Origin: Octopus vulgaris
Taxonomy: Eukaryota
Direction of reading: 5' to 3'
Length of the DNA stretch: 64,000 nucleotides
Assembly (NCBI GenBank): GCA_951406725.2
Contig: OX597827.1
Location: 24,986,001 to 25,050,000, forward strand
Positions within the stretch are counted from its first letter, which is position 1. Each line of letters begins with the position of its first letter. Below, piece by piece: positions 21,001 to 45,000 of this stretch. Position numbers: made by a program.

Positions 21001-24000
21001 TTACGCACTGGGGTCGATATAATCGACTTAATCCCTTTGTCTGTCCTTGTTTGTCCCCTCTATGTTTAGCCCCTTGTGGGTAATAAAGAAATAGGTATTT
21101 CGTCTGCGTTACGTTGTGAGTTCAAATTCCGCCGAGGTCAACTTTGCCTTTCATCCTTTCGGGGTCGATAAATTAAGTACCAGTTACGCACTGGGGTCGA
21201 TGTAATCGACTTAATACCTATGTCTGTCCTTGTTTGTCCCCTCTGTGTTTAGCCCCTTGTGTGTAAAAAAGAAATAGGTATTTCGGCTGCCGTTACGTTG
21301 TGAGTTCAAATTCCGCCGAGGTCGACTTTGCCCTTCATCCTTTCGGGGTCGATAAATTAAGTACCAGTTAAGCACTGGGGTCGATATAATCGACTTAATA
21401 CCTATGTCTGTCCATATTTGTCCCCTCTATGTTTAGCCCCTTGTGGGTAATAAAGAAATATGTATTTCGTCTGCCGTTACGTTCTGAGTTCAAATTGCGC
21501 CGGGGTCTACTTTGCCTTTCATCCTTTCTAGGTCGATACATTAAGTACCAGTTACGCACTGTGGTCGATATAATCAACTTAATCCGTTTGTCTGTCCTTG
21601 TTTGTCCCCTCTATGTTTAGCCCCTTGTGGGTAATAAAGAAACAGATATTTCAAAATTGTCTCCCCTACCAAACGTGATCAAGTTGAAGGAGGGAGCCAC
21701 TGACTACTCCTCGTTGTCTTGTTTTATTTCTTTGCACAACATCTCATGAAATATCTTAGCACTGACTTAACTATTACAAATATCATCCGTTTCCCATATC
21801 TACAGTTGCAATATCGCATTCATCTACACGAGCCTACCGGCCTACTATTAATTTTTACCCGTTCAAATTTATCTTCATCACATCAAAGTTGTGAATCAGT
21901 AGTCATTGTAGCAAAGGATGAAATGCCTTCTGGTATTTGTTCTTGCTCTCTGCGTCCCGACTTCAAGTTCCTTTCAGGTTAATATTGCCTTTGATCAGTC
22001 TCCGCTATCGATAAACTAAAGTAGCAAACCCGAGCAGAATTGCTATAACTTCGGATGCTTTGTGTTATTTGTTATCACACTTTGGGTTCTGAGTCCTTGG
22101 GTGTTAGACAAATTATCATCCGGTTTAACTCCATCACACAGTCCATGGGTTTCATTTCGCAGAGTTCTTTCTAATTAAAGATTCAGGATTGATTTCCAGT
22201 TTGAAGATAACGTCCTCCCTTCGACCCATCAGACGCTAAGGAGACGCGATCTGTTTTTTTTCTCTCCCTGGTTCAATGGTAAAACCATTGAATATTTCCG
22301 AATATTTAGTCTTTGAAAGTTGTCAAAATAAATACACACGCACACACACACACACACACACACACACACACACACACACACACACACACACACACACACA
22401 CACACACACACACACACACACACACACGCACACATGCAGATTACTACACTTAAGGTAGTAAGCTGAAATTAATTAGCTGTTGTAACTTAGAGGAATTAGT
22501 AATTTGCGTTAATTAAAATTCTCATTAGGGTTATAATTTCGATGAGTTAAAAAGTAGTTTCCGCTCACTTAATCATGTATGATAACTAGTATACTTAACT
22601 GTATGTTACTCATGCAGAAGACCCACGTGGGGAACTTTTTTTGCAGTGTCATTTCAACAAATAATAAATTATTACACTGAACGTGGGTGCTTATATGTGG
22701 TCACTCGATCGACTAGAAATAGCAGACAACTCTTCCTCAAATTATACCTTATTGCTAGAAGAATCAATGATTGGTAAGTGTTTAATGTTTAAACTATGGT
22801 TTTCTTGAGACAGATATCACTCCTCAACAAGAATGTTCTTCTATTTAGATGTCCGTTTCTTAAACTCAACGAGATCTCATCTGAGAATATCAGGGCTCAA
22901 ACGACGCATTCAAGTTAGGACTATCCCAACAGTTTTTCTCAATTTAATATCAAAATATTCAATACAGTTTGAATTTTGTATATTTTTTTTTGGCATCAGG
23001 CAATGAGAATGTGATTAAAGGGAGATTTGGTCGGTCTTTTATTGTCGTTTTCGTTGCTTAATTCAACTAGGCCCTGAATTAACAAACCTATGATCAAATA
23101 AATTTCAACCATCCTATATTTTAAGACGCATGTCTAAAACTACAGTATTTAGGGTGTCCTTTCCTTCTCTGAGCCAGTAAGGTTATAACAACACAAAACC
23201 CTGACTTCAAAATAAGAAGTTCAAGGAAATTCCCCCTGAAATATGATATAGACTTTTATTATTCATCGCCAGTAATAATCTCCCTAATGGTGTGGTAAAA
23301 ATTGGTTGAATATCGTGTTTCATGGTTTATTACATGTTTAATGGTTTTATTTTTGTACACATATGTTGCCTTCCAAATGGTTTCTAATATTTTCATTGGC
23401 GCTACTGTCTACGATAAATGACTTTTGTTCATTATTAAAGATTATAACATATTTTAATTGCTTCTTTTTGTTTTGTTTCTGTTGACAGATTTATTCCACG
23501 GTAACAATTACGTTTATTATACTGTCCGTAATATCTTTCATCGTAGTTACTCATCCTTGCTGCCGAATACAAGGCGATCGGGATTTTTTTGGAATGGTAC
23601 ACTTAAACGAAACGAGGGAGCAGGAATTTACCTCTATGCCTCATCCTGCGTTTATTGTAATTGATTTAGTTTGTCTCGTATTCTTTACATGCGATTTGGC
23701 AATCAAATACTTCAGTTATCCAAACAGGAAGCTTTTCTTCATAAATGTATTGAATCTTGTGGATATTGCTTCGGTCTTACCTGATTTTATCGCTATTTTT
23801 ATTAGCACTACACTGGATGTAAAAAAGGCCAATGAAGTAATGCACTACGTCAATATTTTAGGGTTATTTCGTTCCCTCAGGATTTTCCGATTGGCACGTT
23901 ACGTCCCAGGATTGTGGATTTTGTTCTACACATTCAAAGCCAGTATCTGGGATTTGTTGTTGATGAACGGCTTTATGATGGTCGGTATGATTGTATTTGC

Positions 24001-42000: not shown

Positions 42001-45000
42001 GTTTTATGAATGTCGGTATGATTATGTTTGCCACTTTCATCTATTACGCCGAGGAGGAAAATTTCCCCAATATTTTCATTGGTATGTGGTGGGCACTGAT
42101 CACTATGACTACGGTTGGTTATGGAGATATGTCTCCATCAAGTAACTTAGGGTACCTTGTTGGCTCGTTATGTGCTGTCACTGGTTTGTTAATGGTCGGT
42201 TTCACTGTTCCTATAATCGTCAGTAATTTTGTCATGTACTACAAACATATGCAATCCATGCAAGAAGCAGGGAAACGTGAGGAAAAAGCTCAGAAAGATT
42301 TGGATCTGCTGCAAAAGTTGATAGAAAGTGAAGAAACAAGTGAACTAACAACCGAAGACATGGGACCTGAGACTTCGTCGGAAAAGCGTTCTAATGAATC
42401 AGAAGAAAAACGTAAACAACATCTGAATTCGTCAAAATTTCCTCCGCCATCTTACGACAGTTTGCCATCTCGCACTAATCACCGGCGCTTGCGTGTAGGA
42501 ATAGCTCGAAATTACATGCTTGCCAATAATAATAAGCAGACGACAAATGGATCACATGTATTAAAGAAACCTCCTAAAGAAACTGGGAATTCAGTACCAA
42601 GCAAAAATAATCGGGATAATTCAGACGTTCATCAGCATATGAATGATGAAAACTCAAATATCAACTGTGGACCAGAGATAAACGATCTTGAAACATCTAT
42701 GTTATAAAGACATTGGTATTGCCGGGCGACAATCGGGTGAAAGCCGCCGCCATTGTATATCATTAACTTCCACTATTCAAATGTTGCTGTGATTTTGCTT
42801 ATTTTAATATTTCTAATGTTGATACCCTTAATACCTGCAGTCAGTACGAGTCGTTGATTCTTATAAATTACATATCACCACGCCGTCTATAAAAGAAGGC
42901 ACCAGAAATTACTATGATAATGTTGCTGCTGCTGATGATAATACTAATATTAAAAGTAATAAATTAATAAGTAAAATAATAATGATTTTTTTATTTGCCA
43001 ACATGGCGACAGACGAAGAGACAACTGAGAGAGACAGAGCGAAATGTGGAGTTTTATATAGAAAAATCGAATGCGAACAAAGATGACGTAAGATAGTATA
43101 TAAATTGTATACTATTATTTTATAATGATGATGATGATGATGATGATGGTGCCGCCTTCCTGGTGCAAAAGATCGTGAATCTAGGACCGATCGAATGAAT
43201 AATTCCACAAGATCATTCTGGAGAACAAGGGCAAGCGTCCTCCATCCTTCAGATGTATATTCAGAGTAATCACATCTACTCCTACCATTTTCCTAACTCT
43301 CGCTTATCTTGAAGGCGGTGCCACCACTTTAACCCTACTCCCATTTTTCAAGTGAAAGTTGGAAATGTCTATGAGAACTCGGCCAATAGTCGTATGTACC
43401 CTACGTGCGACAGCTGCTGTTTGATATAACTCTGCCAAAAATCCTCTAAAGGTTGCTTGAGTGGAAATTTCGCGATACGAAAACGGTTTCCACGAGTGAT
43501 CATTTATGAGAATATGTTGCTGTACATTGCAGTGAGCAAGCCTATGAAATGAGTTCGTTTCCTGGTTAACTTTATCGAAAGCTTTCAAGCGATCCAACTT
43601 GGTACGGGTCCCACAGAACTCAACCTTGTCAGTGATGTTTTACTGGGGTAGGAATTGATGCATACAGTCTTAAGTTCTTTAAGTTTGCGTTTATCACTGT
43701 AATGGACCAAGTGTTGTCTACAACATATCTCTTGTTGGTATCCTTTTTTCAGCTGTATTACTACACTTCAGTTCACAGCACTTGGAATTCTCTTATTCCG
43801 CAGTCAGTTGCGGTAGACATCTTCCAATAGGCTACCCAGAAATCTAGCATGTATTTTTCAATATCAGGTTAGATCTTCGAAACCAGGATATTCGCTCCTC
43901 GTGCAACTCCTTCCTGTCTCCCGTATTTCAGTCGATATTATCATCTTCTGCCATTGATCGCAATAGGCCGACGAGGTAGGCAGTAAACTCCACTACCGTT
44001 TACAATTCATTGTCCACCTCTAAGTGTCGGACCAATTAGTGTTAGAAAGCCATACACATCTGTTCAGAACCGAGTATCTTGCGCCCGTCTATGTTCATCA
44101 AATACTAGATTGGGATTTGGTTGCTATGTCATTCTTCGCCCACTCCGGCCTATTGGAAAGCTTTTTGTTCCCCACAATTGTTTAGTGCACGAGCATTAGC
44201 TCTGGCAACATAACATTTGTGTTTTGTGCTAAAAGCTATTCTCGCCGCTAGTCTGTTGGTCGTGTAGCTTCTCAAACAACCTCTCTATTAATAACTCTTC
44301 AATAAACGCTACCGAGCCTCTCTATTCACCCTCCTCGGGATCATCATCGCTGGTTGTTGACAATTCCTTTCGACAACTGTTCCCTAGTTTGCTAATCCGA
44401 TCCTGTTGCCTTTCCAGTAACTGAATTTCTGTCAACGGGCCCTATCTATATCGATCGTGTAGACCTCAAATCTCTGCTATTCTTATCTGCTGGTCAGACA
44501 AAGACTCTTTTTTAGACACGGGTCCAAGACAATTTCCAGTCCATTGAGGTCTAAAGGTTTCACGAATAATACATCGACCCTTCTTCAGATCCTTAGAGAT
44601 CACGGAATGAGTATACCTTTTAGTCGATTACATTTGCTCCAGAGATTCTGGTCTCTCTAATAGCCATCACATCTATATCCAGTGACCTGAACTCGTCGAA
44701 CAAGTTGAACCCAGTCAGCACACATTTATCTGAGTGAAGAAATTTTGATTAAAGAAAAAAAAACTGAGAAGGTCACTCATTAAGTCCTCGAAAGACCTGT
44801 TGACCCGGTTACCTCGTTTGATAAGTAGGAGATATCAAAGGAGACTTTAAAAATCCTTTTGTTGTGCTTCTTTCTAAAAAGGCAAACATCAAAGAGATTA
44901 TTTTCCTTCGACTGTCTATATGTTTGGAAATTCATTTCCACCTATAATCTCTCTTTACAATCTCCTTCGTCAATTTAGTATTTGTTGTTTATTTTTCTTG

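Follow-up and report, generated by a model that had tools for sequence, protein, structure and literature searches.

In this study, we analyzed a 64,000-nucleotide (nt) stretch of the Octopus vulgaris genome (GenBank assembly GCA_951406725.2, contig OX597827.1, positions 24,986,001 to 25,050,000; hereafter the window, in which positions are counted from the first letter) and found in it two homologous tandem exons, A and B, each of which encodes the whole membrane core (S1 to S6) of a voltage-gated potassium (Kv) channel. The two exons agree in strand and phase, and each has its own stop codon and polyadenylation, or poly(A), signal, an arrangement expected of alternative last exons. The most economical reading of the sequence, to which we would give an even chance, is that A and B have in common one upstream exon encoding the N-terminal T1 domain. 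According to this proposal, a tandem duplication would have copied just the terminal-exon cassette of a potassium channel gene of the Shaker superfamily (leaning toward Shaw/Kv3), that is, the acceptor region, the S1-S6 core, the tail, the 3' untranslated region (UTR), and the poly(A) signal. The N-terminal/T1 exon would be located upstream of the window, and its donor would be joined either to A, the transcript ending at the poly(A) site of A, or to B, skipping A. The outcome would be two subunits with the same assembly domain and differing voltage sensors, pores, and tails, the tail of A being truncated.

The two exons appear on the forward strand as stop-to-stop open reading frames (ORFs) at 23486..24436 (316 amino acids, aa) and 41529..42707 (392 aa), at a distance of 18 kb. 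Both ORFs are closed by a stop codon 3 nt upstream, directly before CAG, and the same strong, pyrimidine-rich, phase-0 acceptor (...ttgcttctttttgttttgtttctgttgacag|AT) precedes both exons, so that A starts at 23489 and B at 41532, both in phase 0. With each exon searched by itself, the Pfam family Ion_trans (PF00520) was matched by A with an expectation value (E) of 2.9e-30 (model positions 3-233 of 241) and by B with an E of 4.8e-33 (3-239 of 241). Both exons also align with the solved structures of Kv1.2, Kv2.1, Kv3.1, and Kv4, beginning where S1 does and extending beyond S6 (E about 1e-37 to 1e-53); their matches to Kv1/2/3 channels in the Protein Data Bank (PDB) have E values of about 1e-48 to 1e-53. 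The two proteins share 55% identity (169/306), and the K+ selectivity filter TVGYGD is present in both copies, within the sequence TMTTVGYGDM. The S4 segment of B reads LRIFRALRIFRLVRY, with five Arg residues at every third position, and that of A reads FRSLRIFRLARY, with four Arg residues, the first one being replaced. After S6, which contains TVPIIV in both copies, the coding part of A (23489..24436) continues into a short acidic tail ending with TGA at 24434-24436 (followed directly by TAA, 24434-24439 together), and that of B (41532..42707) into a tail of about 150 aa ending with TAA at 42705-42707. Exon A lacks an ATG in the stretch up to the end of S1 and therefore has to be spliced to a coding exon further upstream; each cassette needs such an exon for its start codon and N-terminus. 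A tblastn search of the window found no third cassette, only A and B. The ORFs, acceptors, and Pfam and PDB matches thus bear out an earlier reading made from the sequence only, which had proposed two paralogous S1-S6 exons with phase-0 acceptors at the start of S1 and their own stops. The same sequence-only reading had placed AATAAA at homologous positions, 25099 and 42958, with which the alignment of the 3' flanks agrees: the first forward-strand AATAAA past the stop is at 25099-25104 for A and at 42958-42963 for B, and the two are within about 10 columns of each other. This hexamer is frequent in the AT-rich window (180 matches on both strands vs 118 expected), so that its support for poly(A) sites is weak.

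The extent of the duplication was defined by blastn and local alignment, which gave homology between A and B from about 23253/41307 to the distal coding region, and by MAFFT, which added a homologous 3'UTR block (24876..25130 downstream of A and 42710..42975 downstream of B, both on the forward strand) that contains the first downstream AATAAA and ends near it. On the upstream side the homology ends about 235 nt before the acceptor. Elsewhere the flanks of A and B showed no homology, the remaining matches being copies of a 184-nt repeat. In these alignments, the homologous unit is the cassette only, comprising some 165-235 intron nt together with the exon and, downstream of it, the 3'UTR with AATAAA, and such confinement of homology to a unit running from acceptor to poly(A) signal is the expectation for duplication of a terminal exon alone.

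A T1-coding exon was searched for in the whole window with the Pfam family BTB_2, with every stop-to-stop ORF entered separately and the ORFs scanned in batches. At E 0.1, none of the other 378 forward-strand ORFs of at least 40 aa (378/378 scanned) gave a BTB_2 match, nor was one among the matches listed (25 of 32 families in one batch) for the 256 reverse-strand ORFs of at least 50 aa (256/256 scanned). At E 1, there was likewise no match among 126 forward-strand ORFs of 24-39 aa between the stop of A and B (50 ORFs of 20-23 aa excluded) or among 141 forward-strand ORFs of 27-39 aa upstream of A (130 shorter ORFs excluded). In the same batch mode, RVT_1 was reported at 1.7e-29 as a positive control, indicating that real domains are reported by this procedure. 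Six-frame scans of the window for T1 motifs gave isolated matches and no ORF with two motifs, and the linker motif had no match in any frame. Two isolated T1-like matches were rejected. The first, 'LFINVGGRIEVF' at about 10356, is considered a chance match (it lies in an 18-aa ORF, and the pattern was matched five times over all frames); the second, 'LEEMSYWGI' on the reverse strand near 950 (ORF 829-1065), matched nothing in the PDB at E up to 10 and gave no BTB_2 match, and its ORF is located in repeated sequence. The sequence-only reading had stated that no T1/BTB ORF is present in the 23 kb before A or between A and B and had proposed a BTB_2 profile scan of the window as a check. With that scan done, no T1/BTB_2 coding sequence is detectable on the forward strand in the repeat-rich upstream 23 kb (1..23324), which also lacks the T1-S1 linker motif, or in the 16-kb interval between the cassettes (25131..41365), which contains repeat copies, simple repeats, and a reverse-transcriptase-related fragment. 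The inference of that reading, one upstream T1 exon spliced to either A or B, is partly supported, as the refuting conditions open to sequence analysis all came out in its favour: a T1 exon or mini-exon between A and B did not emerge, and as to an assembly join in the same interval, the window holds no N and no assembly gap. Very short or very divergent T1 exons could escape such scans, as fragments score poorly with hidden Markov models (HMMs).

This last point bears on a different explanation, namely that A and B are separate genes with their own promoters and with short or divergent non-T1 5' exons inside the window, their products being T1-less or having a novel N-terminus. Small ATG-containing exons with a phase-0 donor may be present, the scan having covered ORFs of at least 24 aa between A and B and of at least 27 aa upstream of A, and HMMs having little power on fragments. 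We nevertheless regard separate genes as unlikely: the close structural relatives all have T1 before S1 (the matches to PDB chains begin at about residue 165-230), the conserved pre-S1 linker is not found in any frame by its motif, and the flank homology stops so close to the acceptor that no duplicated first exon is visible. Another possibility is that of interleaved or nested genes, in which each core would have a private T1 exon, the two being located upstream of the window in the order T1, T1, A, B, and the first intron of B would span A. Such an order is compatible with the absence of T1 from the window and with selection on both cores, and first introns of 25-60 kb are given for vertebrate Kv3 genes in one study (PMC2933717). 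However, it would require two separate duplication or rearrangement events together with a same-strand nested gene, and no positive evidence for it was found, making it very improbable in our view.

The sequence around the acceptors adds a distinct line of evidence. The 3' end of the intron before A (23325..23488, forward strand), including the polypyrimidine tract and AG, has a near-identical twin before B (41366..41531, forward strand): in the last 164 intron nt, 160 aligned bases are identical (160/164), and there is one 2-nt indel in addition. Identity climbs abruptly at 23325/41366, from 64% to 92-100%, and past codon 30 or so it drops again. In codons 1-28, the synonymous divergence (dS) is 0, and the 13 nucleotide differences, spread over 11 codons, are without exception non-synonymous. 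Over the tract, differences occur at 13 of about 68 non-synonymous sites vs 5 of about 186 intron and silent sites (Fisher p 4e-5), an excess which implies that selection acts on both copies. Because its edges are sharp and its silent sites identical, the tract is most likely a gene conversion of about 250 nt (about 165 nt of intron and the first 28 codons), and its differences fit a selection that kept or drove the amino-acid changes at the start of S1. A pattern of this type has been described for paralogues under gene conversion (PMC3728101). Pure constraint by a splicing element could also explain the identity of the tract, but it is less likely, as the whole 164 nt is conserved and the edges are abrupt. 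The tract folds no better than its shuffles (z +1.1, +0.58, and +0.44) and no Rfam family matches the conserved intron stretch, so there is no support for this stretch being a structured RNA, a known RNA, or an editing-complementary duplex. Three of the 13 differences in S1 (codons 5, 7, and 15; 23489-23572 vs 41532-41615) exchange A and G and are of the I/V or I/M type. They resemble recoding by adenosine-to-inosine (A-to-I) editing that is genomically fixed in one copy, and may be coincidence. Even if the splicing model fails, a homogenised tract in which the only differences are changes of amino acids in S1 points out S1 positions of functional importance.

Beyond the tract, the comparison of codons 31-240 between A and B gave a dS of 0.78 and a ratio of non-synonymous to synonymous divergence (dN/dS) of 0.33. 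For S4-S6 (codons 121-240), dN/dS is 0.18 (bootstrap 95% interval 0.10-0.32), and only 0.05% of the bootstrap replicates reached 0.5, the minimum pairwise ratio to be expected under neutral drift of one copy from the duplication onward. Both cores have thus been under purifying selection for most of their history, and neither copy looks like a dead relic.

The tails have had a different fate. The stop of A is at the end of a 27-nt tandem repeat of 5.9 copies (24275..24435, forward strand) with units of the EEDGNVEKK type. Past the stop, a relic of the distal tail is recognizable on the forward strand at 24437..24752 in frame +1, homologous to residues 316-347 or so of B (tblastn E 0.012), with TAA at 24561-24563 where B has AAA. 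As judged from this comparison, A has lost its distal tail by a one-base shift in an A-run and a nonsense change. Frame +1 is open from 24249 to 24749 but for the single TAA at 24561 (within 24249-24752). A one-base change in the A-run near 24420-24428 would join the core of A to frame +1; the shift itself could be a real frameshift or a homopolymer error, and even if it were mended, the TAA would truncate A before the motif RLxxGxAR that is conserved in B. A candidate small intron in the tail of A (GT 24328, AG 24595, phase-compatible, with a weak acceptor) could rescue the relic tail.

The disabled tail of A, with its A-run frameshift and its TAA, and the repeat-rich nature of the A-B interval, which is a typical place of mis-joins, are what one would cite for a third alternative, in which one copy is an orphan no longer expressed, or in which the assembly is at fault, having produced the tandem arrangement and lost the T1 exon of B. 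Against this stand the intactness of both cores, with filter, S4, and S6 present, the low dN/dS of S4-S6, the non-synonymous nature of 13/13 coding differences in the tract, which argues for selection on both copies, and the absence of N from the window. We consider an orphan or artefact quite improbable.

Further examination of the S6 gate revealed that it reads TVPIIV in both A and B, the first proline of the PVP hinge (consensus PVPVIV) being replaced by T in each. In a study of Kv subunits, PVPVIV is the S6 hexamer of homotetramer-forming Kv channels, and 42 of 43 regulatory subunits of mouse and sea anemone deviate from it, including by loss of a hinge proline (PMC6279357). The TVPIIV hinge common to A and B suggests modified gating or a regulatory role restricted to heteromers. 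Whatever becomes of the splicing model, the hinge change from P to T points to what may be a new group of modified or regulatory subunits. The pore-S6 coding region also overlaps matches to the Rfam family K_chan_RES (RF00485), a potassium channel RNA editing signal, in A at 24083-24196 (+) with 70.9 bits and in B at 42114-42227 (+) with 49.1 bits, the latter just below the gathering threshold of 51 bits. The alignment of B contains several non-standard pairs, and the codon for the isoleucine of the S6 gate falls within the matched stretch; conservation of the pore-S6 coding sequence alone may explain the match.

By these sequence comparisons, the placement of A and B in the Shaker superfamily is secure save for the hinge proline and the T1 domain, which is beyond view. 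At the subfamily level, A and B may be Shaw/Kv3-like. The nearest language-model clusters are KCNC fragments, and the PDB scores to the Kv1.2-2.1 chimera, Kv1.2, Kv3.1, and Kv2.1 are within a few orders of magnitude of one another, the matches to Kv3.1 (1.9e-48 and 2.4e-48) being accompanied by Kv1.2 and Kv2.1 as similar or more so. An intron directly before S1 and an S1-S6 region contained in one exon, with acceptors at 23488|23489 and 41531|41532, are found in both cassettes.

Taken in full, the model would comprise one T1 exon and at least two terminal exons, each with a whole core, tail, and 3'UTR. Conversion would keep the acceptors alike, so that the cores compete equally, and selection would keep the cassettes different where S1 begins and in their tails; the subunits would possibly be of the regulatory type, and more cassettes may lie beyond the window. 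We put this fuller version at slightly under an even chance. Several points weigh against the proposal of a shared T1 exon. The scans of the 64 kb, which upstream of B reached down to forward-strand ORFs of 24-27 aa, did not turn up the T1 exon, and an N-terminal exon that is split finely or is very divergent could have escaped them. A is transcribed first and has the same acceptor, so that simple kinetics favour A, yet it is B that has the intact long tail. Literature searches turned up no earlier case of a Kv gene with alternative whole-core exons, and work on Nematostella reports little evidence for splicing inside the conserved Kv core (PMC9989356). If the model is true, an entire voltage sensor and pore would be swapped behind a constant tetramerisation domain, and the choice of assembly partner would be separated from gating, providing a natural experiment on T1 specificity versus core function. 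Kv diversity is usually explained by whole-gene duplication, by N- or C-terminal splicing, or by RNA editing, and the arrangement would be a fourth route.

Besides the channel exons, several other features were observed in the window. The repeat of about 184 nt forms arrays of two to four units with 87-92% matches at 11468-11829, 12568-12929, and 20911-21652, and also occurs as single copies on both strands, e.g., at 16194-16428, 35657-35885, 38412-38647, and 40165-40412. It looks like a short interspersed nuclear element (SINE); a tRNA-derived origin was considered and dropped, ARAGORN having found 0 genes. The RVT_1 match mentioned above is in an uninterrupted ORF of 1235 aa on the forward strand (53969-57673), which also has a weak zf-RVT match and a strongly positive AT skew and is probably, from its sequence, an intact retrotransposon of the type without long terminal repeats (non-LTR). 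On the reverse strand, a 213-aa ORF at 33137-33778 has a long stretch of Asn and, after it, a well-formed C-terminal part (…KPDIVV…LIDMSIP…). The ORF resembles a retroelement protein tail, and its Pfam scan (E up to 0.1) reported no family. The G+C content is 0.45-0.46 at 16000-20000 and 28000-30000 vs a background of about 0.37, with an AT skew of 0.22 at 16-18 kb, and Pfam scans of ORFs found no protein family in these G+C-rich stretches.

Among known systems, the nearest working analogies for the proposed gene appear to be the insect BTB-zinc-finger genes, together with a mirror image of the protocadherin/UGT1A design. In the insect genes lola, mod(mdg4), broad, fruitless, and tramtrack, a common 5' BTB part is combined with alternative sets of 3' effector exons, and the T1 domain itself has the BTB fold. 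The proposed model would resemble them in having a constant 5' part for oligomerisation, of BTB fold, and alternative 3' exons; they differ in that their effector is a DNA-binding finger and in that their splicing is documented, whereas that of A and B is inferred. In the clustered protocadherins, UGT1A, and insect Gr28b/Gr39a, tandem paralogous large exons are joined to shared constant exons, and each tandem exon encodes most of the protein, as in A and B. However, these systems vary their 5' exons, which have their own promoters, whereas A and B are 3'-terminal and the choice between them would be one of splicing and polyadenylation. With respect to the homogenised tract, the primate L/M opsin genes are tandem paralogues under gene conversion in which, as in A and B, introns and silent sites are homogenised and specific amino-acid differences persist as islands of divergence. 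The tract of A and B differs from the opsin case in being only about 250 nt long and in straddling a splice acceptor.

Closer comparisons are available among Kv channels. The regulatory ('silent') subunits (Kv5/6/8/9 and cnidarian ShakR) have an atypical S6 gate as A and B do, but P1, the first hinge proline, is the position that they most often keep (PMC6279357), whereas A and B lose it. Shaw genes have multiplied in lophotrochozoans, with 13 in Lottia and 9 in Capitella in one survey (PMC3519636). This is a lineage-specific multiplication of Shaw-type cores into which A and B would fit if of molluscan descent, although the survey counts its members as separate genes. In vertebrate Kv3 genes (KCNC, Shaw-related), exon 1 is documented to carry the N-terminal part, and the complete S1-S6 membrane domain is in exon 2 (PMC2933717), in keeping with the intron near the T1/S1 boundary that the sequence-only reading had noted for these genes. 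A and B share with them an S1-S6 region in one exon after, as proposed, an N-terminal exon. Unlike in vertebrate Kv3, the S1-S6 exon is here terminal, with tail, stop, and 3'UTR included, it is present twice, and the S6 hinge is TVP rather than PVP.

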